NCBI GenBank assembly: GCA_964632015.1 | Contig: CAZWAT010000001.1 | Coordinates: 1,834-65,833, forward strand | Source: an uncultured Planctomycetaceae bacterium | GTDB taxonomy: Bacteria; Planctomycetota; Phycisphaerae; SM23-33 | Length of the DNA: 64,000 nucleotides | Direction of reading: 5' to 3' | Part shown: positions 2,639 to 47,935 of the stretch, piece after piece | Numbering within the stretch: position 1 is the first letter of the stretch | Layout of the letters: every line of letters starts with the position of its first letter | The notes under the pieces: generated by a model | The model's database searches: none | Told to the model about the DNA's origin: nothing | The model's input: the letters and a program-made list of their open reading frames with translations, nothing else | Made by a program: the position numbers and the translations under genes

Positions 2639-3661
2639 ATGTCTTCACGCGAACACGGTGCGGATGTAGCCCAGATGCTCGAGGACTTCGAGCACACATA
2701 TACCCAAGTGACTGCACAGGTTGCACGGGTGCTTGTGGGCCAGCGAAACGTATTGGATGAAGTCATGACATGCCTGCTGGCAGGCGGGCATGCACTTCTT
2801 GAAGGCGTACCTGGGCTGGGCAAGACACTGCTCGTTCGCAAGCTTGGCGAAGCGCTGGATCTGACGTTTGGGCGAATCCAGTTTACACCCGACCTGATGC
2901 CATCCGACATCACCGGCACGCAGATACTCGACTCGTCACCCACCGGACCCAAAAGCTTCAAGTTCGAACCCGGGCCAATATTCGCTAACCTGGTTCTCGC
3001 CGACGAGGTCAACCGCGCCACCCCTAAAACGCAGTCGGCCATTCTCGAGGCAATGCAGGAACGAACCGTCTCCATCGCCGGAACCAGCCATCCGCTGCCC
3101 GAACCTTTCATCGTGCTCGCCACCCAGAACCCTCTTGAGATGGAGGGAACCTACCCCCTGCCGGAAGCACAGCTTGACAGATTCATGCTCAAGATCGTTG
3201 TCCCGCCTCCGTCATCATCGGAACTGGTGGAGATTCTTGATCGCACCACCGGATCATCCGAGCCTGAAGTCAATGCCGTTGCCAACGCAAGGAAGATCGC
3301 CCGGATGCAGCAGATCGTTCGTGAAGTCCCCGCTGCCACTGCGGTCAAGAAGTTCGTTGCCGATCTTGTGCTCAATACCCATCCGACCTGCCCCACCGCG
3401 CCTCCGTCGATCAGAAAATATGTTCGCTATGGGGCATCGCCGCGAGGGGCGCAGTCGATACTGCTGGCTGCGAAGGTGCGGGCACTGTGCAAGGGCAGGT
3501 GCAACGTGAGCTACGATGATGCCATCAAGTCGTCAGCCCCCAGCCTGCGTCACCGCCTGATTCTCTCATTTGAAGGACAAGCCCAAGGCGTCCTGCCGGA
3601 TTCTCTCATCGAAGACGCCATCGCCTCGGCGGAGCATATGCGTCAGGAATCTGACGCCTGA
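2639..3661 (+). CDS. MoxR-family AAA+ ATPase
   Basis: Walker A GVPGLGKT, Walker B LADEVNRATPKTQSAILEAM, and an overall MoxR layout (HALLEGVPGLGKTLLVRKL...). Confidence 0.8.
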   Translation: MSSREHGADVAQMLEDFEHTYTQVTAQVARVLVGQRNVLDEVMTCLLAGGHALLEGVPGLGKTLLVRKLGEALDLTFGRIQFTPDLMPSDITGTQILDSSPTGPKSFKFEPGPIFANLVLADEVNRATPKTQSAILEAMQERTVSIAGTSHPLPEPFIVLATQNPLEMEGTYPLPEAQLDRFMLKIVVPPPSSSELVEILDRTTGSSEPEVNAVANARKIARMQQIVREVPAATAVKKFVADLVLNTHPTCPTAPPSIRKYVRYGASPRGAQSILLAAKVRALCKGRCNVSYDDAIKSSAPSLRHRLILSFEGQAQGVLPDSLIEDAIASAEHMRQESDA

Positions 3662-3696: not shown

Positions 3697-5385
3697 TCAG
3701 CGGACTTTCTTTAGAACCCGTAATACCTCTTCAAGTGATGTCCCGCCCGTCTTAAGCAGTGAGTTTGCGGAGGTCCAGAGCGACGCCAGCCCCGTTGGAT
3801 GTCGCTGCCTCAGTCGCGATGATGTTTGGGGCGTGGTTACAAACGTGGATGCGAGCAGCGCTGTCTGATTGTAACCTCCCCTGCAATCCTTGCATCCCGC
3901 CGGGGCGAACAACGGAAACTCCATCCCTTTCCCAATGAGTTCCGGCGGGAGCGCATCCTGTCCAGGGCCGGTGGTCTGTTTTCTGCATCGCTCGCACAAC
4001 AGCCGAACCGTTCGGACTGACGTGATGCCCGCGACAACCGACGATAGACGCCACTCGTCGAGCCCCATATCCCTGAGTCGGGCCAACGCGTCGCACACGC
4101 TCGCCTCGGTCATCCTTGCCACCACAAGCGCGCCCCGCGAAGCAGCGCCGGCTGCGGCGTTGGCGGTGGCCGGGTCAAGAATGTCGGTGAGAATCGCATC
4201 ATGGGCTTGATGGGCGAGAATCTCCATCGCGCCTGCAACGCTCGAAGGGTCAGCCTCATGCTTGGCGCGAGGTACGTCGCTCGGCGCGGCATCCAGCACT
4301 GCCGATATGGTACTCCTGCCGGCGCCTCCAAGCTCGTGCATAAGGGCGTCACAAAAACGCCTTGCACCCGATCTTGGTGGGGCAGTGACGATCATCAATC
4401 CCCAGCTTCGCGAAACCACTGCCCGCAATGTCTTCAGATCCTCTTGTCCCAATCCGAGTGTTTCGAGCCCCCCGGCGGGTGGTAGGAGCAACTCGATATT
4501 CACCATGCTCCCGTCAATAGTCCCGCAGACAGATGCAACGCATGTAACTTCCCCACCATTTGTCCGCAGCTTGAACTCTCCGATGCCCTTGCCGTCAGCA
4601 AGACCCGCCCTATCTGCAAGATCGGCGATGACCTCTTTACCCAGACCAGAAGGGAGCCGACGACGGAAGCCGGGCTTTTCGTTCAGCATCCCCCCAATCC
4701 TCAAGGCGAGCGTAAGATCGTCGTTCCGCAAATGCAGACGCACCCCGGACGCACGGCATCGCACGGCGTCATCAAGCACCGCATCGAGAATCTGCTGAGC
4801 CCTGCCGCTGGGTTCGGGTTTTGTGGAACTGACCTTCAGATCCGCCGGGGGAAGATGAGTATCCTCCTGGTCGGCATGGGTATTGGAATCATCAGTTTTA
4901 GGCGTGTCGCAAGGAACGCCCACAGGCTCGGAAGCGTTCTGAATCTCTTCACTCTCGGCGGGCTGTTTCCGCAGGAGTTCTTCGTTAAATTCAGACGCAA
5001 GACGATCAGGTCTGGGTGTGCTTGCTTCGCGTAGGCTCACATCAGACATCTCGCCGGTGAGCACTGTTTCGCTATTGTTCCGTGCGGCTGCCAAAAGCCT
5101 GCGGGGGCTTTCGTCGCTTGCGAGTGTGGCAACGCATGGAACCTCAACTTCAGGAGTCTTTTCGTCGTGGCCCTCCTCTGACGAGACGGTCTTGGCGAGG
5201 ATCAATTCTATATCTATCCCCTGCGCCTTGAGGAATCGCACAAGCTGCGTTTCGCTTATCCGATAGGTCCTGTCGTCGAGTTTATGACAACGCAACCAGC
5301 CCTTGTCGATCCATGAACGAACCTCCGCGGGTGTAACACCCAACAGATCGGCAAGCTGGTAAATGGTGAACGAACGTTCTGCCAT
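3697..5385 (-). CDS. MerR/excisionase-type HTH fused to a GspE/PilB-family type II/IV secretion ATPase core with degenerate Walker A/B (probable pseudo-ATPase)
   Basis: ATG at 5385 has a GGAGG RBS 5 nt upstream; the ORF-track start at 5430 is TTG. N-terminus FTIYQLADLLGVTPAEVRSWIDKGWL is an HTH. The middle region (RASGVRLHL..LALRIGGML..LADRAGLADGKGIGEFKL) resembles the T2SSE N2 domain. The Walker A position reads APPRSGAR instead of GPTGSGKT, and the His-box region reads ARMTEAS. The C-terminal tetracysteine CERC...CKDCRGGY is retained. Confidence 0.6.
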   Translation of the reverse strand: MAERSFTIYQLADLLGVTPAEVRSWIDKGWLRCHKLDDRTYRISETQLVRFLKAQGIDIELILAKTVSSEEGHDEKTPEVEVPCVATLASDESPRRLLAAARNNSETVLTGEMSDVSLREASTPRPDRLASEFNEELLRKQPAESEEIQNASEPVGVPCDTPKTDDSNTHADQEDTHLPPADLKVSSTKPEPSGRAQQILDAVLDDAVRCRASGVRLHLRNDDLTLALRIGGMLNEKPGFRRRLPSGLGKEVIADLADRAGLADGKGIGEFKLRTNGGEVTCVASVCGTIDGSMVNIELLLPPAGGLETLGLGQEDLKTLRAVVSRSWGLMIVTAPPRSGARRFCDALMHELGGAGRSTISAVLDAAPSDVPRAKHEADPSSVAGAMEILAHQAHDAILTDILDPATANAAAGAASRGALVVARMTEASVCDALARLRDMGLDEWRLSSVVAGITSVRTVRLLCERCRKQTTGPGQDALPPELIGKGMEFPLFAPAGCKDCRGGYNQTALLASTFVTTPQTSSRLRQRHPTGLASLWTSANSLLKTGGTSLEEVLRVLKKVR

Positions 5386-5700
5386 CTGTGCCTCCGAAGA
5401 TATTATGTCAGGCTTTGTGCGATGCGTCAACCGGAGTAATTAACGCCGCTTTGGCGAAGCCAGAAGTGCGGGCCGGCGTACAGAACGATTACCAACGGTA
5501 GATCCAAACTACCGCGGGATTGTTACGATATTCACTTACACGAGTTAAGTATGATGTTCTTGAAGCTTGTTTGACAAACGGATGCGGAGAAACGGTAAGG
5601 CGGACATTATTAGCGTCTCACAACAATCAGATAGCCCCTGTTTGACCCAAATCCGGAATGGTGAACAGGCAAACAAGGCGCCTGTGCGAACATAGTTGTT

Positions 5701-5752
5701 CGAACAACCAACAAAGCACAGAGCGGACGGTATTGAGTCCACTCTGTGCTTT
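5701..5752 (-). terminator. Rho-independent terminator downstream of the V-ATPase operon
   Basis: Perfect 11-bp stem AAAGCACAGAG / CTCTGTGCTTT with an 18-nt loop. On the minus strand it is followed by GUUGGUUGUUCG, a U-rich tract. It sits just 3' of the atpK stop at 5775. Confidence 0.55.
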
Positions 5753-5774
5753 GCAATTGGAGGTTAAACTTGTC

Positions 5775-8756: not shown

Positions 8757-10049
8757 CTACTTAGGCCAGTGCGCGTCAATAATTGCACGCCTTATGCCGA
8801 CCTCCGCGGGTTCAAAACATTCGGCGAGAATCGCCCAGCACCTGTCCAACGCCTCGAACAGCGGAATGTTGACTTCAAGACTCATGATGCGCTGCTCGAA
8901 GAGGTCTCCATACTTCAGAAGCTTCTGGTCCCACTGGGACATTTCAAAGCCCATGTCGCGTTTTTCACGTGACTCTCGACACAGAGAGTATAACTGTATG
9001 CATGCGTCCATGATTGCCCGGTGGTCGTCACGGGTTTTCCCGTTGACCTGCTGCTTGAGACGCGAAAGAGAGCCGAACGGCTCAATGCGCCCGTTCCGCA
9101 GGTAGAACTGACCCTCGGTGATATAGCCCGTATTGTCGGGAACAGGGTGAGTCACGTCATCACCGGGCATGGTCGTGCACGCAAGCACGGTCATCGATCC
9201 GGCGCCGTCGAAATCAACCGCCTTCTCGTATCGTCTCGCCAACTGGGTGTACAGGTCGCCGGGATAACCACGGTTCGAGGGGATCTGTTCCATGGTAACG
9301 GCGATTTCCTTCAGGGCGTCCGCGAAGGAAGTCATGTCGGTCAACAGAACCAGAACCCTTTTGCCCTGGAGCGCGAACGACTCGCCAACGGTCAGGCAAA
9401 GGTCGGGCACGAGCAGCGCTTCCACCACCGGGTCGGCGGCGGTGTGAACGAACATGATGGTTCTTCCGAGCACGCCGCCTCGATCGAAAGTGTCGCGGAA
9501 CTTGAGGTAGTCGTCGTGACGCAGCCCCATGCCGCCAAGCAAAATCACATCCGCCTGGGCCTGAAGACCCACGCGGGCAAGAAGCTCGTTATAGGGTTCG
9601 CCCGCAACCGAGAAAATGGGGAGCTTCTGCGATTCGACCAGCGAGTTGAAAACATCGATCATCGGAATACCCGTCTCGATCATCCTGTCGGGCATGCGTC
9701 GACGCATCGGGTTAACCGCGGGCGAACCGATATCCACCGGCTTGCCCTCAACCTCGGGTCTGTCGTCCCTGGGCTTGCCGGATCCGTTGAACACTCTTCC
9801 CAGCAGGTCTTCGTTGAAGGGAACCTGCATAGGCTTGCCCAGAAATCTCACGCGATCCCCGGTTGATACGCCCTGCGTACCGGCAAAAACCTGAAGTGAA
9901 ACGTGTCCATCTTCCAGCCGAATTACCTGCGCAAGGCTGGGACCCCGTGAAGTGGTGACCACCGCCAGCTCGTCATAACCGATGTTCGAAGCGGTTACAG
10001 TGACGACGTTTCCGGCAATGCGGGTAATTTCGTCGTAGTACTTTCTCAT
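8757..10049 (-). CDS. atpB: V-type ATP synthase subunit B
   Basis: The product is 430 aa. [16 protein letters not shown]...[13 protein letters not shown] is characteristic of the non-catalytic B subunit. Confidence 0.9.
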
Positions 10050-10067
10050 ATCGCCAACCTCTTGTGG

Positions 10068-11813
10068 TTATTCGGTCTGTTCGCCGTCATCGCCGGCGGG
10101 ATTGGACACCAGGAAGGACTCGATGTCCTCCAGAAGCTTCTTGTATTCGTCGCTTCCCTCAGCAGAGTAGTTCCAGTTCCGGAACATGTCGGTGGTCGCA
10201 ACCATTGTCTTGCGGGCCTGGGCCTTGTCCTTGAAGGCGAATTCCTTGTCCAGCACCGCCAGCACCTTGTCGAACACGAAGACCTGGCGATCCCTCGGGG
10301 TGGCGCCGTCGACCTTGTCGAAGGCGTTCTGCTGGAGGTATATGTTGTCGAAGAACTCGGACTTGAGCATGACGGTGTAATCTTCGATGCTAGTGCCTTC
10401 TTCGCCGACAACGGTCATCATCTGCGCGATTTCGTTGCCTCGCTTAAGTATCGAGCGAACCCTTGCCACCTTCGCCGGATCAATGATGCCGGAGTACTTG
10501 CTCCACGAGTCGAGCGGATCAATTGCGGGATATCGTCTGGCGTCCGACCTGGCCCTGGACAGGCCATGGAATGCCCCGACGACTTTCAGGGTGGACTGAG
10601 TAACCGGCTCTTCAAAATTACCACCCGCGGGGCTGACTGTTCCACCGATGGTGACCGAGGCGACCCTTCCGTCGTAAAGCTCGATCATGCCCGCTCGTTC
10701 ATAGAAACCTGCGATACGGCTTTCGAGATAAGCCGGGAACGCCTCTTCACCTGGAATTTCCTCAAGCCTTCCGGAGACTTCGCGCATCGCCTGAGCCCAT
10801 CGGCTTGTCGAGTCGGCAAGCAGCAGCACGTGCAGACCCATCTGTCGATAGTATTCCGCAAGCGTAACGGCGGTGTATACCGAGGCCTCTCTCGCAGCCA
10901 CGGGCATGGCCGAGGTATTGCAGATGATAATGGTTCGTTCCATTAGGCTCTTGCCCGTTCTCGGGTCAATGAGCTTTGGGAACTCGCGGATGGTTTCAAC
11001 CACTTCGCCTGCACGTTCACCGCATGCGGCAAGAATGACCACGTCAACTTCGGCATGTCGGGAAGTAATCTGCTGAAGGACGGTCTTGCCCGCGCCGAAC
11101 GGCCCGGGTATGCAGTAGGTACCCCCGCGGACGATGGGGAACAGCGAATCGATAATTCTCACCCTTGTCGCAAGCGGTTCTGTAGGCATGAGCCTGCGCT
11201 TTGATACGTTCAGGGGCAGTTTGACTGGCCAATCCTGTTGCATGGTGACCGGGATTTTTCGCCCCGCGTCCGTAATCAGGACTGCTATTTCCTGATCGAC
11301 CGTGTATTCGCCCGCTGGGGCAATGCTTTCGACTTTGGCAGGTTCTTGAAGGTTGAACGGCACCATGATCTGGTGCGTGAACATGTTTTCGGGAACCGTA
11401 CCAAGGGCATGACCCGCCTCGACGGCATCGCCGGGCTTGACAATGGGGGAGAACTCCCACTTTTTGTCCAGTGGAAGACCATGGATGTACAGGCCAGGCG
11501 TAAGGAAGAAGCCCGCCTGCTCGGCAACCTGGGGTAGAGGGTTCTGCAGGCCGTCATAAATCTGTCCAAGCAGACCCGGACCAAGGGTAACCGAAAGCAT
11601 CTCCTGGCGGAATTCGACCTCGTCACCAACCTTGAGTCCGCGAGTTTCCTCGAAAACCTGCAGGTCAGCAACCGATCCTCGAATACGAATTACCTCGCTG
11701 AGCAGCTTGGTGCCATCGGCACGCTTGCAGTAACCCACCGAGTTCTGCACGACTCGTCCGGGAATCTGTGCGACGACCATGTTCCCGAAAACGGCAACTA
11801 TAGTTCCGTTCAC
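10068..11813 (-). CDS. atpA: V-type ATP synthase catalytic subunit A
   Basis: The product is 581 aa. Walker A GPFGAGKTVLQQ is present, along with the non-homologous insert typical of A subunits. Confidence 0.9.
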   Translation of the reverse strand: MNGTIVAVFGNMVVAQIPGRVVQNSVGYCKRADGTKLLSEVIRIRGSVADLQVFEETRGLKVGDEVEFRQEMLSVTLGPGLLGQIYDGLQNPLPQVAEQAGFFLTPGLYIHGLPLDKKWEFSPIVKPGDAVEAGHALGTVPENMFTHQIMVPFNLQEPAKVESIAPAGEYTVDQEIAVLITDAGRKIPVTMQQDWPVKLPLNVSKRRLMPTEPLATRVRIIDSLFPIVRGGTYCIPGPFGAGKTVLQQITSRHAEVDVVILAACGERAGEVVETIREFPKLIDPRTGKSLMERTIIICNTSAMPVAAREASVYTAVTLAEYYRQMGLHVLLLADSTSRWAQAMREVSGRLEEIPGEEAFPAYLESRIAGFYERAGMIELYDGRVASVTIGGTVSPAGGNFEEPVTQSTLKVVGAFHGLSRARSDARRYPAIDPLDSWSKYSGIIDPAKVARVRSILKRGNEIAQMMTVVGEEGTSIEDYTVMLKSEFFDNIYLQQNAFDKVDGATPRDRQVFVFDKVLAVLDKEFAFKDKAQARKTMVATTDMFRNWNYSAEGSDEYKKLLEDIESFLVSNPAGDDGEQTE

Positions 11814-21618: not shown

Positions 21619-21692
21619 TGGGCGCAACAGGGCTTGAACCTGTGACCTCGTCCTTGTAAGGGACGCGCTCTAGCCAACTGAGCTATGCGCCC
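21619..21692 (-). tRNA. tRNA-Val (anticodon UAC)
   Basis: Hand-folded cloverleaf: acceptor GGGCGCA/TGCGCCC, D-stem GCTC/GAGC, anticodon stem CGTCC/GGACG with loop CTTACAA, T-stem ACAGG/CCTGT with loop TTCAAGC. CCA is not encoded. Confidence 0.85.
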
Positions 21693-26565: not shown

Positions 26566-27585
26566 TTGACGGGGCGGAGACAGATTCTCGTAGTCGATGA
26601 TGATCACGTTATCTGCGACGTACTGTGTGCGACGCTGCGAAACGCGGGGATGAAGTGCCACGGTACCACAGACGGTCACGAGGCCCTTGCGCTTCTTTCG
26701 AAGGCGACATACGACGTAATGATATGCGACATAATCATGCCCGGCGTCGGGGGCCTGGAATTGCTCGAAAGGTCACAGACGTTGGCGCCTGATTGCAAGG
26801 TCATAATGATCACCGGATGCAAGGATACCCAGCATCTGGCCAACTCTCTTCACCTTAACGCGTTTGACTATGTGCAAAAGCCTTTCGACATGCATTACAT
26901 GCTGGAAGTGGTCGAAAAGGCCTATGCACACTCTGCACAGTCCCTCCAACTTCGTGCTGCAGAGGCGCTGGAGCTGCAAAGCAGGCAAAGGCAAATCTTC
27001 CTGGACAGCGTGCAGGCACTGGTGAACATCGTCGAAGCCAAAGACAGCTACACAAGGCGGCACAGCGATCATGTAACATATTACAGCCTGTGCATCAGTC
27101 GCCTGCTTGGCATGCCAATAGAGATGCTTTCGTCCATAAAGACCGCTGCCCTGCTTCACGATATCGGAAAGATCGGCGTGCCCGATCGCATACTCACCAA
27201 GCCGGGGGCGCTGACCAAGGATGAATTCGACCAGATCCGCCGGCACCCGCTTTTAGGGGCGGAGATCCTGCGGAATATCTCGGCGTTCCAGACCGAGGCC
27301 AGCTATGTTCAGTCGCATCATGAAAAATGGAACGGCCGAGGTTATCCCCACGGTATCAGCGGAAAGCAGATTCCACTACCCGCACGCATAATCAACGTCG
27401 CCGATTCAATAGACGCAATGCTGATGGAACGCAGCTACAAGCCGGCATTCCCGCTGGAAAAAGTGATAGAAGAAATTTCCCGCGGCGCGGGCGAACAGTT
27501 CGACCCTTCAATTGCCGAGGCGACAATCGCCTGGTGCACCTCAAACTACGATGAAGTAATGAGGCCTTTGCTGGAAGCTGCCTAG
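26566..27585 (+). CDS. Response regulator with REC domain and HD-GYP c-di-GMP phosphodiesterase domain (RpfG-like)
   Basis: TTG start 5 nt after an AGGAGA RBS. REC signature ILVVDDD...MICDIIMPGVGG. HD-GYP signatures HSDHV...LLHDIGKIGVPDRIL...HHEKWNGRGYPHG. No cognate histidine kinase is adjacent. Confidence 0.8.
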   Translation: MTGRRQILVVDDDHVICDVLCATLRNAGMKCHGTTDGHEALALLSKATYDVMICDIIMPGVGGLELLERSQTLAPDCKVIMITGCKDTQHLANSLHLNAFDYVQKPFDMHYMLEVVEKAYAHSAQSLQLRAAEALELQSRQRQIFLDSVQALVNIVEAKDSYTRRHSDHVTYYSLCISRLLGMPIEMLSSIKTAALLHDIGKIGVPDRILTKPGALTKDEFDQIRRHPLLGAEILRNISAFQTEASYVQSHHEKWNGRGYPHGISGKQIPLPARIINVADSIDAMLMERSYKPAFPLEKVIEEISRGAGEQFDPSIAEATIAWCTSNYDEVMRPLLEAA

Positions 27586-27670: not shown

Positions 27671-28312
27671 ATGGCCGATAATCATCAGAAGAAAGACAGA
27701 AAGACGGCAATTCTCGCCGCTGCCGAAAAGGTTTTTGAGGAACACGGTTACTCCTCGACAACCATCGAAGCAATCGCGCTGGAGGCGAGCACCGCTAAAG
27801 GTAGTGTATACAATTACTTCAAGAGCAAGGAGGAACTCTTCGGGCAAGTGGTTTCAAAGGTTATCGCGGTCAACGAGGCGGACGTCAACAAGGTAATGTC
27901 CACCAGCAAAATCGCTTCTGAAAAGCTATTGTCTGCAATTGACATGTGGTTTGACCGCCTCGCCTATTACAGCAGAATAGGCAGGTTGATGCTTGAAGCC
28001 CGGGCCGCATCCGCCGCCAATGACGAACATGGCTCTTTAATTGCCGCCCAGTTCAAGGGGATTTATGAGCTGATGTGCAGAATCGTCAGCACGGTCATAG
28101 CCGAAGGTATCCAGTCGGGGGAGTTTTCAAGCACAATAGACGCCAGACAGGCTGCCATGCTCACAGTCGCCCTTCTGGACGGAATGCAGATAGAGTGCAT
28201 TCTGAACGTGGGAGTTACACCTGACAGAAATCTGCTGGAAGTGCTCAAGAGCGGAATTGTTTCGTCGCTGCGGGCTGGCATTATCAAGCAGGAACCGCAC
28301 AAAGAAGGGTGA
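27671..28312 (+). CDS. TetR/AcrR-family transcriptional repressor
   Basis: N-terminal HTH: RKTAILAAAEKVFEEHGYSSTTIEAIALEASTAKGSVYNYFKSKEELF. Confidence 0.85.
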   Translation: MADNHQKKDRKTAILAAAEKVFEEHGYSSTTIEAIALEASTAKGSVYNYFKSKEELFGQVVSKVIAVNEADVNKVMSTSKIASEKLLSAIDMWFDRLAYYSRIGRLMLEARAASAANDEHGSLIAAQFKGIYELMCRIVSTVIAEGIQSGEFSSTIDARQAAMLTVALLDGMQIECILNVGVTPDRNLLEVLKSGIVSSLRAGIIKQEPHKEG

Positions 28313-29514
28313 GGATGATAGTGCGTCAAGGGAAGACAAAATACGTGTCACCCAGCAGAAAGCTGAAGAAACTGCCGCGATGGCTTGTACCTGGACTGGT
28401 GATCACCGGTGGCGTACTGACGGTGATTCTTCTGGCGGTTCTTCTTGGGAAGCCTACGGGCATCGACGCGCCCTCGGGCAGGCCCCTCGTCAACGTGCAC
28501 GTCGAGCAAGTCGTCCCCGTGCCCGTGGTGGAGGACGTCTTTCAGATCAACGGAGTGGTCGAGCCTCTGCGAACGGTCAGCATTGCCGCCGAGGTTGCGG
28601 GGCAGGTTGAAGGGCGAGGTCCTGCCGATCGACCCTTGGAGAAAGGCGATCATGTCGAGGTCGGAGACATCATCCTGCGAATCAACACCGAGCTGCTTCA
28701 GGCGGACTACAACCGTTACGATGCCCAGAGACAGTTTGACGAGGCAGACCTCGAACGCGTGATAGAGCTGAATAGAGTTCGAGCAGCCACCGACAGGGAG
28801 GTCGAGGAGGCACGAACAAGGTTGCAGATTTCACAGGCTGCCTACGAGTCCGCGCGTGCCCAGTTGAGGCGATCCACCATCACTTCACCCATCCCAGGAT
28901 ACGTGAACTCGCTGCCGGTTGAGGCGGGCGAGTATGTCACATCCGGCACGGTCGTCGCTGACATTGTGCAGGACGATCCCGTCAAGGTTATCGTTCATGT
29001 ACCCGAGCGCAATATCAGTTATCTGAAGATCGGCGACACGCATCGCATTGTCGACAAGCTTGGTGGATCGATTTTCGCCAGTAATAACAATATTGACGAG
29101 TCGCATACGTGGGAAGGCACGATTACCTTCATCAGCGCTACCGCCGATACGGCAACCCACACAACACGTATCGAGCTTACGGTACCCAACCCGCGTCAAA
29201 GCCCGCAAAGGCTCAGGGCCGGACAGATCGTACTGGCCAGACTTTTGCGGCAGGTTCATACCGATGCCATCATGGTTCCCTTGCGCGTGCTTATTCCCCA
29301 GCCGATGAACGGGCAGCAGCGATACGTCGTCTTTGTCGAAGAAGATGGAATCGCCCAACAACGAGTAGTAACCCCCGGCCAGATTCGCGATGACATGGTG
29401 ATGATCGTAGGTGGCGACCTTGAGCCTGGCGAGATGCTCATCACCGAAGGTCACCGCTACATCGGCCCAGGCCAGCCTGTAAGAATCGTTCCGGCAAGCG
29501 AGGCGAACTGGTGA
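28309..29514 (+). CDS. RND efflux membrane fusion protein (periplasmic adaptor, HlyD/AcrA family)
   Basis: GTG at 28309 overlaps the tetR stop; an alternative ATG is at 28315. Single N-terminal TM, then coiled-coil and lipoyl/beta-barrel motifs (EVGDIILRINTELLQADYNRYDAQ...RSTITSPIPGYV). Confidence 0.8.
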   Translation: MRMIVRQGKTKYVSPSRKLKKLPRWLVPGLVITGGVLTVILLAVLLGKPTGIDAPSGRPLVNVHVEQVVPVPVVEDVFQINGVVEPLRTVSIAAEVAGQVEGRGPADRPLEKGDHVEVGDIILRINTELLQADYNRYDAQRQFDEADLERVIELNRVRAATDREVEEARTRLQISQAAYESARAQLRRSTITSPIPGYVNSLPVEAGEYVTSGTVVADIVQDDPVKVIVHVPERNISYLKIGDTHRIVDKLGGSIFASNNNIDESHTWEGTITFISATADTATHTTRIELTVPNPRQSPQRLRAGQIVLARLLRQVHTDAIMVPLRVLIPQPMNGQQRYVVFVEEDGIAQQRVVTPGQIRDDMVMIVGGDLEPGEMLITEGHRYIGPGQPVRIVPASEANW

Positions 29515-32500
29515 TCATTACTAATGCGGCAATCAATAATCGAATCACCGTAGCCGTGCTCGTGGTGCTTATCGCCATCCTCGGTGTGATGAGCTACCTT
29601 AGCCTTCCTCGCGAGGCGGCCCCGGACGTGCCCATCCCGTATGTCTTCATCACCACCATTTACGAAGGCGTTTCCCCCGAGGATGTCGAGACCGCGGTGA
29701 CGATGAAGATCGAGAAAAACCTCACGGGCATCAGCGGCATCAAGGAAATTCGATCCGCAAGCTCAGAGGGCGTCTCGACAATTCTTGTCGAGTTCATGCC
29801 GGACGTACGAATCGAGGACGCCCTTCAATATGTGCGTGACAAGGTCGAGCAGTCCCGCGGCGACCTGCCCACCGAAGAGCAACTAAGGGAACCCGTCGTA
29901 CGAGAAATCAACGTGGCAGAGTTTCCCATCCTCACGTTCAACATCTCCGGACCCGTCTCACCAGTTGTTCTCAAATCTATAGCGGACGAGCTTGAAGACC
30001 GTATCGAAGAGATTCCCGGCGTGTTGAACGTCGATGTCCTTGGCGCGCTTGAGAGGGAGATCCGCCTTGAGGTAGACCAAGACCGCATCGCCGCCTACGG
30101 GTTGACAATTCCTGAGCTGATCACTCTCGTCCCCTCCGAGAACGTCAACATATCGGCAGGTGGCCTGCGAACGCCCAACGTCAGGTTCAATGTACGTGTG
30201 CCCGCGGAGGTGGTTGACCCGACGGAGGTTTACGACTGGCCTCTCGTCGAGCGCGATGGAAAGATGATTTACCTGGCGGACATCGCCGACGTGCGCGATA
30301 CTTTTAAAGACCGCGAGCAGTATTCCCGGCTCGATGGGCAGGAGTCCATCACACTCAGCATCCAGAAGCGGGTCGGAGCGGACGTCATACCCATTGCCGA
30401 CACCATCAAGGCAATGCTAGCCGAAGCGAAGAATGTCGTCCCCAGGGATGTCACCTTCAGCATCACCATGGACCACAGCGACGATATCCGCATGATGGTG
30501 GCCGACCTCGAAAACAACCTATTCGCCGCCTTCGTGCTGGTTATAGTTGTGTTGATTATTTCGATGGGGTGGCGTGCGGCGGTGGTCGTCGCCACGGCGG
30601 TGCCCCTGAGCATGCTAATGAGCCTCGCGATCATATCGGCTTTAGGCCATACGCTCAACATGATCGTGCTTTTCAGCCTCGTGCTTGCAGTGGGCATGCT
30701 GGTCGATAACGCAATTGTCATCGTCGAGAACATTTTCAGACACAGGGAGCTGGGATACGACAGGATCGAGGCCGCCAAGAAGGGCGCTGCCGAGGTCGCC
30801 TGGCCGGTCATAACCTCGACGCTTACGACAGTTTCGGCGTTCATACCACTGCTGTTCTGGTCGGGGATCATGGGCGACTTCATGAAGTATCTGCCCATCA
30901 CCGTTATAGTCGTGCTTTCAAGCTCGCTGTTTGTCGCCCTTGTGGTAAGCCCGGTCGTTGCGACACTGCTGTCATCGAAGGTCAAGTCGCATGAACGTGA
31001 AACCCGCATCCGCAGATGGTACCGCTGGTTGCTCAATTCAATGCTCGAACATCGAGCGACGACGCTGATTGTCTGCATACTGCTTCTAGTGGGTCTGGGG
31101 GTCGTATTCGTACGGGTTGGCCCGGGGTTCGAGTTCTTTCCTACCATGGACCCCAGGAACTCACTGATCAACATCCGAAGCCCCCAGGGAACCAGCGTCG
31201 AGCGATCTGACGAGCTTGCCCGCCAGGTCGAAGAGCAAATCGAGAAGCTCCGCGGCCCTGAAGACAATCCGCACATTGACTATGTGGTTACCAACGTCGG
31301 CGGGGCGAGCGGAGGAGACCCATTCGGCGGCGGGGGTACAGGCCCGCACATGACCAATATCACCCTTACTTTTCCGGATTACGAATACCGGCCTCGCCCT
31401 TCCGCGGACATCATCGCCGAACTTCGAGGCATGCTCACCGACATCACTGGCGCGGAAGTCAAGGTAGAGCGGCAAAGAGAAGGCCCGCCAACAGGTGCCG
31501 CGGTAACCGTGCGCATCGTCGGCGAAGATTTAACCACCCTCGAAAAGCTGGGCGAAGAGGCGATGGAAGCAATTGTCGATGTACCCGGCCTGGTCAATCT
31601 GCGCAGCGACCTTGAAGCGACCAGGCCCGAACTTGCATTCATCGTCGACAGGCAACGCGCAAGCAGGATGGGACTCAGCACCGCGACAGTGGGCAACTTC
31701 CTGCAGACCGCCATCTTCGGATCAAAGGTGGGAACGTTCAGGCAGTTCAACGACGAGTACGATATAACCATCCGCCTGCCCGAATCGCAAAGGCAGGACA
31801 TCAATGATCTATTCCGACTGCATGTGCCCAATGTCACCGGCGAGGCGGTGCCCCTGAGCGAACTGGGCACATTTGAATACCGCGGAGGACTGGGAACCAT
31901 ACACCGCATCAATCAGCAGCGGGTTGTTACCCTCACCGGCGATGCCGAGGGAAGACTAGCGCCGGAAGTACTCGAGGACGTAATGAGCCGACTCGATGAG
32001 TTGAATCTACCAGACAACTATGAGATCCAGTACGCCGGCGAAAGAGAACAACAGGACGAAGCAAGCCGATTCCTCCTCGGCGCGTTCGCCATGGCCTGCC
32101 TGTTGATTGTGCTCATCCTGGTCGCCCAGTTCAACACACTTACCGCCCCGCTGATCATCATGACAACCGTAGTGCTTTCACTGATAGGCGTGCTGCTGGG
32201 GCTGCTGATAACACACCTGCCGTTCGTTATCATCATGACAGGAATCGGAATCATCAGCCTTGCCGGCGTCGTTGTGAATAACGCTATTGTTCTGCTCGCA
32301 TATACCCGCCAGCTTGAGAAACAGGGAATGGATGTAATATCAGCCACACTGTGCGCGGGTGAAACAAGGCTCAGACCCGTTCTGCTCACGGCGATAACAA
32401 CCACCATCGCACTCATTCCAACCGCAATTGGAATGGGTTTCGACATTCATACCTTCCGCTGGGTCTGGAGAAGCGACTCAAGCCAGTGGTGGCGATCAAT

Positions 32501-32636
32501 GGCGGTGGCAATTATCTTCGGCCTGACTTTCGCCACCTTCCTCACACTTATCATTGTGCCTACCCTCAATGTTTCGCTGCACAAACTCAGGACAAAACTG
32601 GGACTGGTGAAGTCAACCACCTCAGAACATTCCTGA
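29511..32636 (+). CDS. RND (HAE1-type) inner-membrane efflux transporter, AcrB/MexB family
   Basis: 1041 aa in a 12-TM/two-large-loop layout. GTGA overlap with the MFP gene. No outer-membrane factor gene is adjacent. Confidence 0.85.
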   Translation: MIITNAAINNRITVAVLVVLIAILGVMSYLSLPREAAPDVPIPYVFITTIYEGVSPEDVETAVTMKIEKNLTGISGIKEIRSASSEGVSTILVEFMPDVRIEDALQYVRDKVEQSRGDLPTEEQLREPVVREINVAEFPILTFNISGPVSPVVLKSIADELEDRIEEIPGVLNVDVLGALEREIRLEVDQDRIAAYGLTIPELITLVPSENVNISAGGLRTPNVRFNVRVPAEVVDPTEVYDWPLVERDGKMIYLADIADVRDTFKDREQYSRLDGQESITLSIQKRVGADVIPIADTIKAMLAEAKNVVPRDVTFSITMDHSDDIRMMVADLENNLFAAFVLVIVVLIISMGWRAAVVVATAVPLSMLMSLAIISALGHTLNMIVLFSLVLAVGMLVDNAIVIVENIFRHRELGYDRIEAAKKGAAEVAWPVITSTLTTVSAFIPLLFWSGIMGDFMKYLPITVIVVLSSSLFVALVVSPVVATLLSSKVKSHERETRIRRWYRWLLNSMLEHRATTLIVCILLLVGLGVVFVRVGPGFEFFPTMDPRNSLINIRSPQGTSVERSDELARQVEEQIEKLRGPEDNPHIDYVVTNVGGASGGDPFGGGGTGPHMTNITLTFPDYEYRPRPSADIIAELRGMLTDITGAEVKVERQREGPPTGAAVTVRIVGEDLTTLEKLGEEAMEAIVDVPGLVNLRSDLEATRPELAFIVDRQRASRMGLSTATVGNFLQTAIFGSKVGTFRQFNDEYDITIRLPESQRQDINDLFRLHVPNVTGEAVPLSELGTFEYRGGLGTIHRINQQRVVTLTGDAEGRLAPEVLEDVMSRLDELNLPDNYEIQYAGEREQQDEASRFLLGAFAMACLLIVLILVAQFNTLTAPLIIMTTVVLSLIGVLLGLLITHLPFVIIMTGIGIISLAGVVVNNAIVLLAYTRQLEKQGMDVISATLCAGETRLRPVLLTAITTTIALIPTAIGMGFDIHTFRWVWRSDSSQWWRSMAVAIIFGLTFATFLTLIIVPTLNVSLHKLRTKLGLVKSTTSEHS

Positions 32637-32848: not shown

Positions 32849-32920
32849 TTTTATCGCGTGCAGCCGGGGCGTGCCTGGCGGGACTGGAAAGGAAAAAGAA
32901 TCGTGAAGCGAGATTGTCGT

Positions 32921-34249
32921 ATGTACGGATTGGCAGTTGTCGGAGTTGTGGTTGGTCTTCTGGCCCGACCGGTAATGGCCGGGGAGGCGGAACCATCCGA
33001 GGTCGTGGTATCCGTGGACACCCTCTGGGTGCTGCTTGGCGCCTTTCTTGTGTTTTTTATGCAGGCAGGGTTTGGAATGGTGGAGGCGGGATTTATCAGG
33101 GCCAAGAATGCCTGCAACATCCTCACCAAAAACTTCATGGACTACTGCACCGCCAGCATCGTGTTCTTTCTGGTGGGATATGCGTTCATGTTCGGACCTG
33201 GAAACGGATTCATCGGCATGGGCGGATTTGCAATGTCAAACGCGCATAACCCCAGCGGCGTACCGATCTGGGCGTTCTGGCTGTTTCAGGCTGCCTTCTG
33301 CGGAGCCGCCGCCACTATCGTAGCTGGCGCGATGGCCGAGCGAATGAAGTTCGGTGCTTACCTGGCGTACACAGCCGTCATCAGCGCGGTGGTCTACCCG
33401 ATCATCGGACACTGGGTGTGGGGAGGGGGTTGGCTTGCGGAGATGGGATTCGTCGACTTCGCCGGATCGACCGTGGTTCACGCCACAGGCGGGTGGTCGG
33501 CGTTCATTGGTGCGGTGCTTCTGGGAAGCAGAGTTGGCAAGTTCAACGGAGACGGAATGGCCAAGGCAATTGCCGGTCACAGCATTCCGCTGGCGAGCCT
33601 GGGGGTGTTCATCCTGTGGTTCGGATGGTTCGGATTCAACTGTGCATCGAGCCTTTCGGTCGGTGATGGTGAGCTTATCGCTCTTGTCGCCGCCAACACG
33701 AATCTGGCGGCCGCGGCCGGGGCCATTTCGGCAATGCTTACCGTGTGGATGCTGTTCGGAAAGCCCGACCTGTCAATGACCATGAACGGCGCGTTGGCGG
33801 GCCTGGTCGCCATCACCGCCCCATGCGCGTTCGTCGATCCATGGGCTGCGATCGTGATAGGCGCGATCGGTGGGGTCATTGTGGTTTTTGGCGTGCGACT
33901 TCTCGACAAAATCGGCGTGGACGATCCTGTCGGAGCGATTCCGGTGCACGGGATGAATGGGATCTGGGGAACCATCGCCATAGGACTTTTCGCCAGCAGA
34001 GATCTGCTCCTCGACGATATGGTCTCGCATGGATTGCTTCTTGGTGGCGGCATGGGTCAGCTTCTCGTTCAGTCGATTGGTGCGGTATCCGGCGCGGGTT
34101 TCAGCGTGCTGGCAATGGGACTGGTGTTTCTCACCATCAAAAAGACCATCGGCCTGCGGGTCAGCAAGGAAGATGAACTGCGGGGGCTGGACATCGGTGA
34201 ACATGGGCTGGAAGCATACGCGGGTTTCCAGGTCTTCAGCAATATTTGA
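32921..34249 (+). CDS. amt: Ammonium transporter (Amt/AmtB) with signal peptide
   Basis: ATG at 32921; an alternative GTG at 32903 has an AAGGAAA RBS. Signal peptide MYGLAVVGVVVGLLARPVMA. Signature FFMQAGFGMVEAGFIR and an 11-TM layout. Confidence 0.85.
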   Translation: MYGLAVVGVVVGLLARPVMAGEAEPSEVVVSVDTLWVLLGAFLVFFMQAGFGMVEAGFIRAKNACNILTKNFMDYCTASIVFFLVGYAFMFGPGNGFIGMGGFAMSNAHNPSGVPIWAFWLFQAAFCGAAATIVAGAMAERMKFGAYLAYTAVISAVVYPIIGHWVWGGGWLAEMGFVDFAGSTVVHATGGWSAFIGAVLLGSRVGKFNGDGMAKAIAGHSIPLASLGVFILWFGWFGFNCASSLSVGDGELIALVAANTNLAAAAGAISAMLTVWMLFGKPDLSMTMNGALAGLVAITAPCAFVDPWAAIVIGAIGGVIVVFGVRLLDKIGVDDPVGAIPVHGMNGIWGTIAIGLFASRDLLLDDMVSHGLLLGGGMGQLLVQSIGAVSGAGFSVLAMGLVFLTIKKTIGLRVSKEDELRGLDIGEHGLEAYAGFQVFSNI

Positions 34250-34274
34250 TTATCCTCATGTGGAGAATTGACAA

Positions 34275-34616
34275 GTGAAACTAATCATTGCCTACATTCA
34301 ACCCGAAAAGCTTAATGACGTTAAACAGTCACTTTACGCCGCCGAAGTATTCAGGCTATCCGTTACCAATGCCATGGGCTGCGGACAGCAGAAAGGCTAC
34401 CAGGAGACATATCGCGGCGTGGACATAGAGGTAAATCTGCTCAAAAAGGTAAGAATCGAGATCGCCGTCAATGACGACTTTGTCACTCCCACCATCGACG
34501 CCATTATCAACGGCGCGAGGACGGGCAATATCGGAGACGGCAAGATCTTCGTGCTTCCCTTGGAGCAGTGCTTCCGAATCAGGACGGGCGACACTGGACC
34601 CCAGGCCGTCGGCTGA
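34275..34616 (+). CDS. glnK: Nitrogen regulatory protein P-II (GlnK-type, amt-linked)
   Basis: 113 aa with a T-loop ([12 protein letters not shown]) that keeps the Tyr in YRG. It lies immediately downstream of amt. Confidence 0.8.
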
Positions 34617-44207: not shown

Positions 44208-44359
44208 GTGTCGGCTTTCCATGACGCTATCATGTTGCAGGTGCACTCATGATTCAACTGCAAAGCGCGGGTTCGGCGATCCCGGTCGACCTGCCCCGAT
44301 TCCCAGCAGGTCATGCATCGGCAAAAGGGCAACCGACGCCGCATCCAGGAGGCACGAAC

Positions 44360-47300: not shown

Positions 47301-47935
47301 TAAGCGACGCCATCTTGGAGCGAGGCAGCGGCAGCGGCGTGCTCGATCTATCAGAGTTGACTCTACAGCCGCTGGGTCCGATGGCCTTGCTTGTTCGCAT
47401 GATGGGGCTTTCCGAGGGGCCACAGCGGGTTATACCTCATCCGGTTCAATTCGCCATTGAGCGGGGCAGGTTGGCGTTTCGGGAGTTCAGACTGGACATG
47501 GGCGGGCAGGTGCTTTTCTTTGACGGGTCAGTCGGCTTCGACGATTCGGTCGACATGGTCGTATCGGTGCCCGTTGGCGCAGAGCTTCTCAGGAGTCTTG
47601 GCGCCAGAGGCGCGGTTGATGACTGGGCAGAGGTGCTTGATGGCGTGAGGATTAGCATACCCATTGTCGGCACGAGGGATCGGCCGCAGCTTGACACAGC
47701 ATCTGTCAACATTCGCCCACTCATAGACCAGGCCGTCCAGACGCTTATTCAGCAACAGCTTCGGGAGCGCCTGGCGCCTCGCTCAGCACAGGATGGTCAG
47801 GACGATCAGCCGGGTCCCTCGCTACCACCACAACGCAGTGAAGACGAGGAGGAGCCTCGCCCAAGCACGCAGCCGGCGGATGAAGACGAAGCCCCACAGC
47901 CCGATAGGCGGTTTCCGTTTCCGTTCCTCAGGTAG
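44360..47935 (+). CDS. AsmA/TamB-like giant envelope protein (N-terminal TM anchor, long beta-rich domain, acidic Pro-rich tail)
   Basis: ATG at 44360 with AGGAGG RBS. RRRRWPWILLAVAVILIVMVLLLPIIL anchor followed by PNLIKTVVNPRIRGSISVEDMNVSW..., as in AsmA-family proteins. 1191 aa. C-terminal DEDEAPQPDRRFPFPFLR. Confidence 0.5.
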   Translation: MSEKHSTEPQNTQAHHQPRRRRWPWILLAVAVILIVMVLLLPIILSTSAGPNLIKTVVNPRIRGSISVEDMNVSWAGPTRLINLRAFDPQGREVLHVNEVVYSAGLWGLATSAMDFDTLDVDQPHAVAHVDEDGTVSLAQAFEPVEPSERDTPTPRVRGRMRVRSGQMRIMHARAMEQPYTIQNIDVDANFDSLNDISGTFSAQTHQQGLITGEFNARNLFPEDGLDLQRVSGDVLVRTAEPIDLAPLALALGRANMTGIVNLLLHARMDNGVGGGELDMEIANLSAAADDARPEPITVSLVGEFVADAEEIRGGANLSAAGEVITRFSWRNTDAPPLDADNIISAVMTGKNVAMPAFSLVADGQVDVARLSRAIPALMSIRPGTAIQRGQFVLRDVQASGGPQPSCTGVLALLNAAVLQNGQLSEWQDIEITLDGRVIEGTGLHLRHMIARAQWGLIEATGTPARMDSQYRIDLAGFQSQVTQVFDMGQTRLTGVIDGSAQVIRATDQRFDYRLDTNVTDFAYRDDQTHIEVQTGRIDQQGTIILEDNRFRGLDVAHTTLNLDDDLIIGAQGQLDQQQGAIEGTVNIQRVSVGYLDTLLTGFTAQTPRELGGSISGVARLHRPHAQSPLLSEGTVTIRDLRDRDAIIEPGDTVLKWTGLEYDLPSSLALEQASLTSASTNATASNFRYEPQPAMVLTGLVEASSDLRGVSRIVRGLAQVDLPEMAGQLNLTHTFAPAGVEGIIPVHGRMLVSGFVLGQGTQALREDEIDLVYAATIDPQRDILQLDQARLSSAIISTQARGTIEELSNRLVMNISGDYQGDWNRITTAIHQVAPDTRENIAMSGSSAGDFVITGPARDATVTPAFRGVEARTAVTWNSGRLYGIEIGPGRLDPSFSDGRLSVPDTQVSASDGVIRIGGIVDLTGEDTSYAHAGQLFVMEGVRVNPDMSREILSRVNPLFYRLAQVDGLASLEVSELFLPLSDAILERGSGSGVLDLSELTLQPLGPMALLVRMMGLSEGPQRVIPHPVQFAIERGRLAFREFRLDMGGQVLFFDGSVGFDDSVDMVVSVPVGAELLRSLGARGAVDDWAEVLDGVRISIPIVGTRDRPQLDTASVNIRPLIDQAVQTLIQQQLRERLAPRSAQDGQDDQPGPSLPPQRSEDEEEPRPSTQPADEDEAPQPDRRFPFPFLR

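Follow-up and report, generated by a model that had tools for sequence, protein, structure and literature searches.

The accepted role of GspE/PilB-type ATPases is that of motors dedicated to secretion systems and pili. In a stretch of 64,000 nucleotides from an uncultured Planctomycetaceae bacterium (the whole of the DNA analysed, here called the window), one gene encodes a core of this type preceded by a helix-turn-helix (HTH) domain, and the catalytic motifs of the core are substituted. The locus raises the question of whether such a protein can still serve a secretion or pilus machine, or whether the motor fold has been put to another use. An earlier note, made by inspection of the same DNA, had described the product as a DNA-binding pseudo-ATPase and had suggested a connection with c-di-GMP; the two proposals fared differently.

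Gene model and domain organisation

The open reading frame listed for this region spans 3697-5430 on the minus strand. Its start codon was placed at the ATG at 5385, because a GGAGG ribosome-binding site lies 5' of it (5391-5395) and the N-termini of related proteins (M-x-E-R-L/S-F-T) are consistent with this position. The gene, its surroundings and the domains of its product are:

3697-5385, minus strand: coding sequence, HTH plus linker plus degenerate GspE/PilB core, 562 aa (stop codon 3697-3699)
5402-5430, minus strand: predicted promoter-like site TTGACG-17-CATAAT with TG 5' of the -10 element (consensus scan)
5711-5754, minus strand: hairpin with an 18-bp stem at the end of the upstream V/A-type ATPase operon (inverted-repeat scan)
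5188-5385, minus strand: excisionase/MerR-type winged HTH, residues 1-66 (Pfam HTH_17, AF2)
4810-5187, minus strand: disordered, acidic, Ser/Pro/Glu-rich linker, residues 67-192 (AF2, composition)
4471-4809, minus strand: N2-type domain, residues 193-305 (T2SSE profile from position 9 onward, EpsE and GspE/PilB alignments, AF2, Foldseek)
3700-4470, minus strand: C-terminal RecA-like ATPase domain with substituted catalytic motifs, residues 306-562 (Pfam, alignments, AF2, Foldseek)

The genes upstream of the target encode V-ATPase subunits (Pfam). Its own promoter-like site and the terminator-like hairpin that precedes it suggest that the target is transcribed on its own. The same succession of elements (TTGAC...AATAAT...GGAGG) is found at the same position 5' of an ortholog sharing 42% identity (loci L001/L013). 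Apart from the V-ATPase terminator hairpin and minor repeats, the inverted-repeat scan returned nothing in the region 5' of the target, and Rfam gave no RNA element near the gene. The regions 5' of 20 non-redundant family genes share no operator-like motif, only GC-rich k-mers at background level.

The N-terminal HTH and the acidic linker

The N-terminus is matched by Pfam HTH_17 (PF12728) at residues 7-55 (30.1 bits, cut-off 27; E 5.8e-7); the TIGR01764 'excise' model falls slightly under its cut-off (26.5 against 28.8). In the AF2 model, which is confident for residues 1-66 and 193-561, this domain has a pLDDT of 80-91 and a predicted winged-HTH topology, with helices at residues 8-15, 19-27 and 45-54 and strands at 34-37 and 40-44. 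A profile of the family HTH matches Pukovnik Xis Gp37 (4j2n), Streptomyces BldC (6ama) and RacA. Its best match in the PDB (8jbs, E 7e-5) is the HTH at the N-terminus of a regulator that binds cobalamin and is 327 aa long. HTH_17-type domains are also able to mediate protein contacts.

The likeness to Xis Gp37 and BldC lies in the N-terminal 66 residues, through HTH_17 and the family profile. Xis and BldC are small stand-alone DNA binders and MerR proteins have a coiled-coil dimeriser, whereas here the HTH is tethered to a dead motor of 370 aa. Assignment to the MerR regulators was rejected, since a disordered linker and not a coiled coil follows the HTH in the AF2 model and the MerR_1 match is borderline (21.7 against 21.6) and covers only profile positions 1-37 of 69. 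Assignment as a true recombination directionality factor was likewise rejected: the target is flanked by housekeeping genes, the V-ATPase operon and MoxR, without an integrase or mobile-element context, and phage and plasmid collections contain no full-length match.

The linker has a pLDDT below 50 over residues 68-192, contains 28 acidic against 12 basic residues and has no Pfam match. Across the family its length varies from 20 to 284 aa, its composition is Pro/Ala/Glu-rich and its net charge is negative in 95% of members. The earlier note had pointed out that GspE N-terminal-type domains act in MshE as receptors of c-di-GMP. The suggestion is not supported for the target: neither the N1 (GspL-binding) domain nor the MshEN/GSPII domain is detected in it (PF05157 and PF22341, no match at E<=1), the region being the disordered acidic linker, and none of 64 family members matches MshEN at E<=0.01. 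MshE belongs to the same ATPase superfamily, but its defining domain is missing here. Separately, P0014, an unrelated degenerate GspE-like protein, carries MshEN.

The proposed link to c-di-GMP through an HD-GYP response regulator is not supported either, that gene being located at 26566-27585 on the opposite strand, 21 kb from the target. None of the recurring neighbours in related loci is annotated as a c-di-GMP gene.

A GspE/PilB fold with substituted catalytic motifs

The remainder of the protein is a recognisable GspE/PilB core. Pfam T2SSE (PF00437) is matched at residues 197-554 with 69.9 bits against a cut-off of 24.9 (E 2e-19), over profile positions 9-368 of 370. In Foldseek, the predicted structure finds PilB, PilF and EpsE at the top (probability 1.00; target TM-scores as high as 0.80, E-values down to 3e-29). 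The best fold matches are PilB/PilF of Geobacter (5tsh, 5zfr) and Thermus (5oiu), at E ~3e-29 and target TM-scores of 0.76-0.80 over ~387 aligned columns. Among solved structures, the best sequence match is EpsE, the Vibrio cholerae GspE (1p9r, 4ksr; E 1e-20, residues 197-560). The fusion of an HTH to a GspE/PilB-type core, as first described, is thus upheld by both profile matches and by the predicted fold.

The state of the motifs was read from a HMMER alignment to V. cholerae EpsE and a MAFFT alignment to canonical GspE/PilB proteins:

4360-4383, minus strand: Walker A remnant APPRSGAR, residues 335-342 (EpsE and GspE/PilB alignments)
4282-4299, minus strand: Asp-box remnant VLDAAP, residues 363-368 (canonical VEDPIE; both glutamates gone)
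4174-4197, minus strand: Walker B remnant AILTDILD, residues 397-404 (EpsE and GspE/PilB alignments)
4102-4137, minus strand: His-box remnant RGALVVARMTEA, residues 417-428 (canonical TGHLVxSTLHTN; both histidines gone)
3883-3996, minus strand: tetracysteine (zinc) module, C464-E-R-C467 ... C498-K-D-C501-RGGY (CxxC...CxxC intact)

In Walker A, the canonical GPTGSGKS/T has become A335-PPRSGA-R342, with Ala341 in place of the lysine and Arg342 in place of the Ser/Thr. In Walker B, VGEIRD has become LTDILD, the catalytic Glu being replaced by Asp, the Gly by Thr and the Arg by Leu. The nucleotide-contacting arginines of the N2 domain are replaced too (QDGR by IGEF, VRVS by CVAS and GERVVxR by GSMVNIE), and the same domain contains a family-specific K-x-x-F-R-R-R-L-P segment at residues 237-245. 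The earlier reading of Walker A, the Asp box and the His box as substituted, with the tetracysteine kept, therefore holds against EpsE and canonical GspE/PilB proteins. The central region is clearly GspE/PilB-like in both its profile match and its predicted fold, and it lacks the P-loop lysine as well as the catalytic residues.

It could still be argued that the enzyme is active through unconventional residues, for example with Arg338, Arg342 or Arg343 taking over from the Walker A lysine, since the P-loop has a cluster of arginines and retains Gly340, and the Asp404 position of Walker B is likewise preserved. This is very improbable, given that the losses are concerted, taking in Lys and Ser/Thr of Walker A, both glutamates of the Asp box, Glu of Walker B, both histidines of the His box and the arginine fingers of N2, and that the motifs vary freely across the family, unlike an active site. 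Moreover, the NCBIfam GspE and PilB models score only 76-93 bits against equivalog cut-offs of 617-676 (TIGR02533, 85.5 against 630; NF007755, 93.3 against 617; TIGR02538, 76.1 against 676).

With GspE/EpsE the target has in common the fold of the N2 and C-terminal ATPase domains and a CxxC...CxxC zinc module, but identity in the Foldseek alignment is 22-23% and all catalytic motifs are substituted; where GspE has its N1 domain for GspL binding, the target has the HTH and the disordered linker, and no gsp genes lie nearby. With PilB/PilF it shares the Cys4-containing extension-ATPase type, but lacks the MshEN/GSPII N-terminal domains, the catalytic residues and a pil gene context.

A family whose named sources are all Planctomycetota

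Orthologs with the same fusion, whose existence the earlier note had left as a question, are numerous. In an exhaustive HMM search, of which the target protein was the seed and is the top-scoring match, the same architecture was found in at least 130 clusters (50% identity), with full-length representatives scoring 200-530 bits. An initial impression of rarity was discarded: word-indexed homolog searches had given only two relatives sharing the architecture. Tandem T2SSE and T2SSF-T2SSE fusions of ~1000 aa, which also came up in the representative search and have their motifs intact, were left out of the family. All named sources of members are Planctomycetota (Phycisphaerae or Planctomycetaceae MAGs), and the target protein itself occurs in identical form on independent contigs from four sources.

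T2SSE is matched in 64 of 64 aligned members and HTH_17 in 56. Eight residues are invariant in this alignment: W25, F51, R229, C464, C467, C498, C501 and G504. The HTH and the Cys4 module are conserved family-wide, whereas the catalytic motifs drift: the Walker A Lys is kept in 11 of 132 members, GK[ST] in three of the 132 and the full catalytic set in none. The P-loop of the family has a consensus of its own, G-P-P-R-S-G-R, which is itself conserved. The target shows the family signature throughout, namely the M-x-E-R-L-F-T...Q-V-A-D-L-L-G...W HTH, the Pro/Glu-rich linker, the GPPRSG-type P-loop remnant and the invariant Cys4; judged by its sequence, it is among the most degenerate members checked.

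These observations bear on the idea that the gene is decaying into a pseudogene, is a chimera of the assembly or arose when a mobile-element excisionase became joined by accident to a piece of gspE, as its degenerate motifs and excisionase-type HTH might suggest. The 562-codon frame is intact and recurs identically in the four sources, the divergent clusters share both architecture and invariant residues, and the flanks are housekeeping genes. Plasmid and phage collections gave no full-length match, only canonical gspE at ~25% identity. Family-wide conservation effectively refutes this explanation.

In PHROGs and PADLOC only the HTH was matched, apart from one functionally uncharacterised PHROGs family that aligns to the ATPase-like core; PADLOC thus gave no match to defence systems beyond the HTH. 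A literature search returned nothing relevant on HTH-fused or pseudo-ATPase GspE/PilB proteins. In public records, members are named "GspE", "PilB", "TadA" or "ATPase, T2SS/T4P/T4SS family".

Gene neighbourhood

No second T2SSE gene was found in the window by tblastn with canonical GspE/PilB proteins, and Pfam scans of 51 of its ~56 larger ORFs revealed no platform, pilin, pseudopilin or secretin component of a T2SS or T4P. The earlier statement that secretion and pilus genes are lacking nearby thus stands. Platform, pilin and secretin genes are also missing among the annotated neighbours on two orthologous contigs. Across ~35 related loci, gathered with a 12-member alignment that reaches only members with the conserved N-terminal peptide and thus a biased sample, no secretion ATPase paralog adjoins the family gene, which is the only T2SSE-like gene present, and the neighbours differ from locus to locus. 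Locus L011 (Ca. Kuenenia) was removed because it proved to be a canonical PilB cluster, and the second family genes that L009, L017 and L037 seemed to contain were dismissed as spurious antisense or low-complexity ORFs or, in one instance, as a separate small HTH protein.

This context weighs on the proposal that the protein is an accessory or regulatory subunit of a T4P or T2SS-like machine encoded elsewhere. The dead ATPase would then co-assemble or compete with PilB/GspE at the inner-membrane platform, and the HTH would couple machine status to transcription or bind DNA in uptake. A fold conserved without catalysis is the pattern of a docking or competitor subunit; the full GspE/PilB fold is kept here, together with an extension-ATPase-specific Cys4 module that is invariant in the family. 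Planctomycetota, moreover, commonly carry several T2SSE paralogs and pili. As canonical genes may sit elsewhere in the genome, beyond the 64-kb window, a role at such a machine is conceivable. It is nevertheless rather unlikely: the N1 and MshEN domains are missing, neither the window nor the related loci place a canonical ATPase gene near the family gene, platform, pilin and secretin genes are lacking in the window and on the two annotated contigs, and the gene looks like a transcription unit of its own.

In one subclade, the family gene is directly followed by a rhodanese gene (16 nt away in L009), and a GltD-like Fer4_20/Pyr_redox_2 oxidoreductase is found repeatedly in the vicinity. Such neighbours would suit a ligand-sensing regulator whose nucleotide pocket (the GPPRSGR-type loop) or Cys4-zinc site binds a small molecule or senses thiol/redox state and so controls DNA binding, the c-di-GMP idea being a special case. 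The conservation of the replacement P-loop, which is not random, and the invariance of the Cys4 module agree with this. For the target, such a function is distinctly improbable, as nearly all phosphate-, Mg- or base-contacting residues are gone, N2 arginines included, and neither rhodanese nor oxidoreductase occurs in its window. In addition, the MshEN module is absent and the HD-GYP gene unlinked, and the Cys4 site of canonical GspE/PilB is regarded as structural. Within the family as a whole, some ligand or nucleotide binding may persist, since the GPPRSGR loop is conserved and a few members keep GK[ST].

Proposed function

The catalytic residues are lost and the family is never found beside secretion genes in the loci examined; for these reasons the target most likely acts on DNA or gene expression and does not power a machine. 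The explanation that we consider best, and in which our confidence is about evenly divided, is that of a cytoplasmic DNA-binding pseudo-ATPase, belonging to an unstudied Planctomycetota family, in which the dead motor would provide an oligomerisation or sensor scaffold. The motor domain would have lost ATP hydrolysis and, in the target member, probably ATP binding too, while the core would still fold and probably self-associate like its hexameric relatives. As an oligomerisation, sensor or docking scaffold, this core could set the number of HTHs presented to DNA, and the role of the protein would be to regulate transcription or to organise DNA. For the acidic tether, a flexible spacer or an autoinhibitory DNA mimic may be envisaged. 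Either the Cys4-zinc site, which is invariant, or the GPPRSGR loop in its remodelled form may receive the regulatory input. Binding to DNA, the state of oligomerisation and the absence of nucleotide binding are all predictions for the target.

A working analogy may be found in regulators that combine an HTH with an oligomeriser, such as the CarH-like cobalamin-binding class, in which the oligomeric state of the C-terminal module controls DNA binding. The CarH-like proteins have a B12-binding C-terminal domain, whereas the target protein carries the GspE/PilB-fold pseudo-ATPase at this place.

More tentatively, and with the odds against it, the family could constitute an unrecognised class of Planctomycetota DNA-binding factor: a dead ring-forming scaffold would display several winged HTHs on long acidic tethers and serve as a global regulator or a chromosome-organising or anchoring protein, possibly switched via the Cys4-zinc site or the P-loop and independent of any secretion or pilus machine.

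Implications

The names given to family members in public records mislead, and would inflate the counts of secretion and pilus systems in Planctomycetota MAGs. The lineage of this family appears to have lost catalysis, acquired a DNA-binding head and left the gene neighbourhood of the machine. If confirmed, a secretion motor would here clearly have been turned into a pseudo-enzyme that acts on DNA or on gene expression, in a phylum of which regulation and cell biology are little understood.

Domain organization and degenerate motifs

The open reading frame is listed at 3697-5430 (minus strand), opening at TTG. This codon actually belongs to the -35 hexamer of the gene's own promoter-like sequence, TTGACG-17-CATAAT, on the same strand. 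Biologically, translation makes more sense from the ATG at 5385, which is preceded by GGAGG at 5391-5395, gives 562 residues and opens the N-terminal peptide M-x-E-R-L/S-F-T common to all relatives. A 42%-identical ortholog carries a TTGAC...AATAAT...GGAGG arrangement at the equivalent upstream place. The protein contains:

Residues 7-55: HTH_17 (Pfam, 30.1 bits, cut-off 27)
Residues 197-554: T2SSE (Pfam, 69.9 bits, cut-off 24.9), spanning nearly the entire profile
Residues 335-342: Walker A, APPRSGAR (canonical GPTGSGK[ST])
Asp box: VLDAAP (canonical VEDPIE)
Walker B: LTDILD (canonical VGEIRD)
His box: RGALVVARMTEA (canonical TGHLVxSTLHTN)
Residues 464-467 and 498-501: CERC and CKDC, retained

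Motif states were read from residue-by-residue alignments to canonical proteins, including EpsE of V. cholerae, the nearest relative of solved structure by sequence (E 1e-20). They confirm each motif described in the earlier note (APPRSGAR at Walker A, substituted Asp and His boxes, a retained tetracysteine); the N2-domain arginines are substituted too. The proposed fusion of an HTH to a GspE/PilB-type core agrees with both the Pfam matches and structure prediction. In an AlphaFold2 model built from a 14-sequence alignment, residues 1-66 are predicted to form a three-helix, two-strand winged HTH (pLDDT 80-91), residues 68-192 are disordered (pLDDT <50) and residues 193-561 are confident. Acidic residues outnumber basic ones 28 to 12 in the linker, which has no Pfam match. 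Foldseek comparison of the model with the PDB ranks Geobacter PilB, Thermus PilF and Vibrio EpsE first (E down to 3e-29, target TM-score at most 0.80, about 387 aligned columns, 21-23% identity) and PilT, DotB and BfpD lower.

Sequence and predicted fold together identify the protein as a GspE/PilB homolog. It differs from functional GspE/PilB in scoring 76-93 bits against NCBIfam GspE and PilB equivalogs with cut-offs of 617-676, in having lost Walker A, the Asp box, the Walker B Glu and the His box, and in lacking an N1 or MshEN domain and any secretion or pilus gene context. On these grounds its assignment as a secretion or pilus ATPase was rejected.

A family found in Planctomycetota

A word-indexed search returned only two proteins of the same architecture, P0002 (42% identity) and P0003 (33%). 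A profile of these and the window protein, run with HMMER exhaustively against 1.84 billion cluster representatives, gave at least 150 matches above 200 bits among the matches listed. Several fragments were set aside, as were about 11 proteins that carry a second T2SSE domain or are long fusions of another kind (Pfam was used to check two of them). This left 132 full-length representatives among these matches, in each of which a variable linker joins an N-terminal HTH to a T2SSE core. Orthologs with the same fusion, for which the earlier note had proposed a search, exist, and the architecture is that of a family, not a singleton. Two top matches of about 1000 residues, P0130 and P0056, carry two intact T2SSE domains in tandem, with a weak MshEN match in the former and a T2SSF platform domain in the latter.

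The Walker A Lys is retained in 11 of the 132 representatives and replaced by Arg in 63; GK[ST] persists in three and the first His of the His box in eight. None of them has the complete catalytic set. An unconventional but active ATPase is very improbable. The substituted P-loop has a family consensus of its own, G-P-P-R-S-G-R. In a 64-member alignment (mean column identity 28%), W25 and F51 of the HTH, R229, the four cysteines and G504 are invariant. Scanned individually, all 64 members match T2SSE and 56 match HTH_17; MshEN is not among the families matched. Linkers range from 20 to 284 residues (median 107), are rich in Ala, Pro and Glu, and are net negative in 95% of members. The window protein ranks among the most degenerate members checked, its T2SSE score being 70 bits against 165-242 for three others. 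P0014, a degenerate 602-residue GspE-like protein outside the family, has an MshEN domain, APVSGGRS at Walker A and no His box, and hints that the superfamily holds a second lineage of pseudo-ATPases, independent of this one.

All loci and proteins bearing an organism name come from Planctomycetota MAGs (Phycisphaerae or 'Planctomycetaceae'); among named sources the family is limited to this phylum. Source annotations conflict ('general secretion pathway protein E', 'ATPase, T2SS/T4P/T4SS family', 'TadA', 'PilB', 'excisionase family DNA binding protein'), and a literature search found no description of a GspE/PilB family that is catalytically dead or fused to an HTH. Plasmid and phage collections gave no full-length match, PADLOC none beyond the HTH, and PHROGs, besides the HTH, a single function-unknown family matching the ATPase-like core. 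Beside the conserved architecture, a pseudogene, a chimera or a mobile-element excisionase is scarcely credible.

Genomic context

13150 to 5775, minus strand: complete-looking V/A-type ATPase operon, upstream of the gene
5711-5754, minus strand: hairpin with an 18-bp stem, ending this operon
2639-3661, plus strand: MoxR-type AAA_3 ATPase gene, convergent, 35 nt downstream of the gene
26566-27585, plus strand: HD-GYP (HD_5) response regulator, on the opposite strand to the gene

The V/A-type operon runs from DUF2764/C-like and DivIVA-like/E-like ORFs to subunits A, B, D, I and K. The hairpin and a 390-nt spacer part it from the family gene, which is apparently a separate transcription unit whose neighbours vary across loci. 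In the related L001 genome, this same operon and the family gene are some 7 kb apart, indicating rearranged local gene order. Flanking housekeeping proteins of the window and L001 are 55-85% identical, whereas the family protein is 42-49% identical and thus evolves faster than its neighbours. A MoxR-type gene lies one to four genes downstream in four loci (the window, L009 at 9616-10626, L017 and L018; 62% identity between the window and L009 proteins), which may simply be retained gene order and not a sign of linked function.

The remark that no secretion or pilus genes lie nearby is borne out: Pfam detects no T2SS/T4P component among 51 window ORFs, and a tblastn search of the window gives no further T2SSE gene. 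Nor, in about 35 related loci gathered by genome and metagenome scans, is there another T2SSE-like gene, except in L011 (Ca. Kuenenia), a canonical PilB cluster rejected as a family locus. The PilB-like fold could suit an accessory component of some pilus or secretion apparatus whose genes lie elsewhere; set beside this context, such a role is rather unlikely.

Neighbour recurrence is confined to subclades. In one subclade a rhodanese gene is directly downstream, in 6-8 loci (for example L009 7645-8232, plus strand, after a 16-nt gap; L002 2952-3542, plus strand). An NAD-dependent epimerase also recurs, as does a divergent 529-residue protein with no Pfam match, in seven loci, and other loci, four in number, have a GltD-like Fer4_20/Pyr_redox_2 oxidoreductase near the family gene. 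Given the invariant Cys4 site, the rhodanese and oxidoreductase neighbours hint at a possible thiol/redox theme; a ligand- or redox-sensing regulator is a distinctly doubtful explanation.

MshEN is a c-di-GMP receptor domain in MshE and PilB. The suggestion that the protein is such a receptor is not supported, since MshEN has no Pfam match in it and is unmatched in the family, and an MshE-type assignment was rejected. The HD-GYP regulator reported for the window is present but unlinked to the family gene: it lies 21 kb away in another cluster, followed by TetR, HlyD-type and AcrB-type (RND) efflux genes (27671-32636, plus strand).

Elsewhere, the window encodes an ammonium transporter and P-II (GlnK-like) pair (32858-34616, plus), a 1228-residue ORF, otherwise unannotated, whose sole match, to DUF748, is weak (44249-47935, plus) and a DAC-domain gene (c-di-AMP cyclase, CdaA-like; 59868-60722, minus), with folP-like and ClC channel genes upstream and a 451-residue ORF without Pfam match directly downstream (58516-59871, minus). 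The sole Rfam/ARAGORN match is a tRNA-Val (anticodon TAC; 21619-21692, minus).

Proposed role

Direct observations are the domain layout, the missing catalytic residues, the family-wide conservation of the HTH and Cys4 site, the variable neighbours of an apparently separate transcription unit, and the confinement of named sources to Planctomycetota. Used as a profile, the HTH of the family finds Xis Gp37, BldC, RacA and the corresponding domain of a cobalamin-binding regulator; excisionase and MerR regulator were both rejected as labels for the whole protein. DNA would be bound through this excisionase/MerR-type HTH, and the dead core, by analogy with regulators combining an HTH with an oligomeriser, may act as an oligomerisation, sensor or docking scaffold. 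We regard this overall reading as evenly balanced. For the acidic tether, a role as spacer or as an autoinhibitory mimic of DNA is conceivable, and any input might act at the conserved GPPRSGR loop or the invariant Cys4 site.

The most fitting description of the protein is as one of a Planctomycetota family, so far unnamed, of pseudo-ATPases in which an HTH is tethered to a GspE/PilB fold. HTH fusions and pseudo-ATPases are familiar themes, and the family's DNA-binding role is putative; it is unusual for a secretion motor to be repurposed as what is probably a DNA-binding pseudo-enzyme, and this as yet unstudied family is large.
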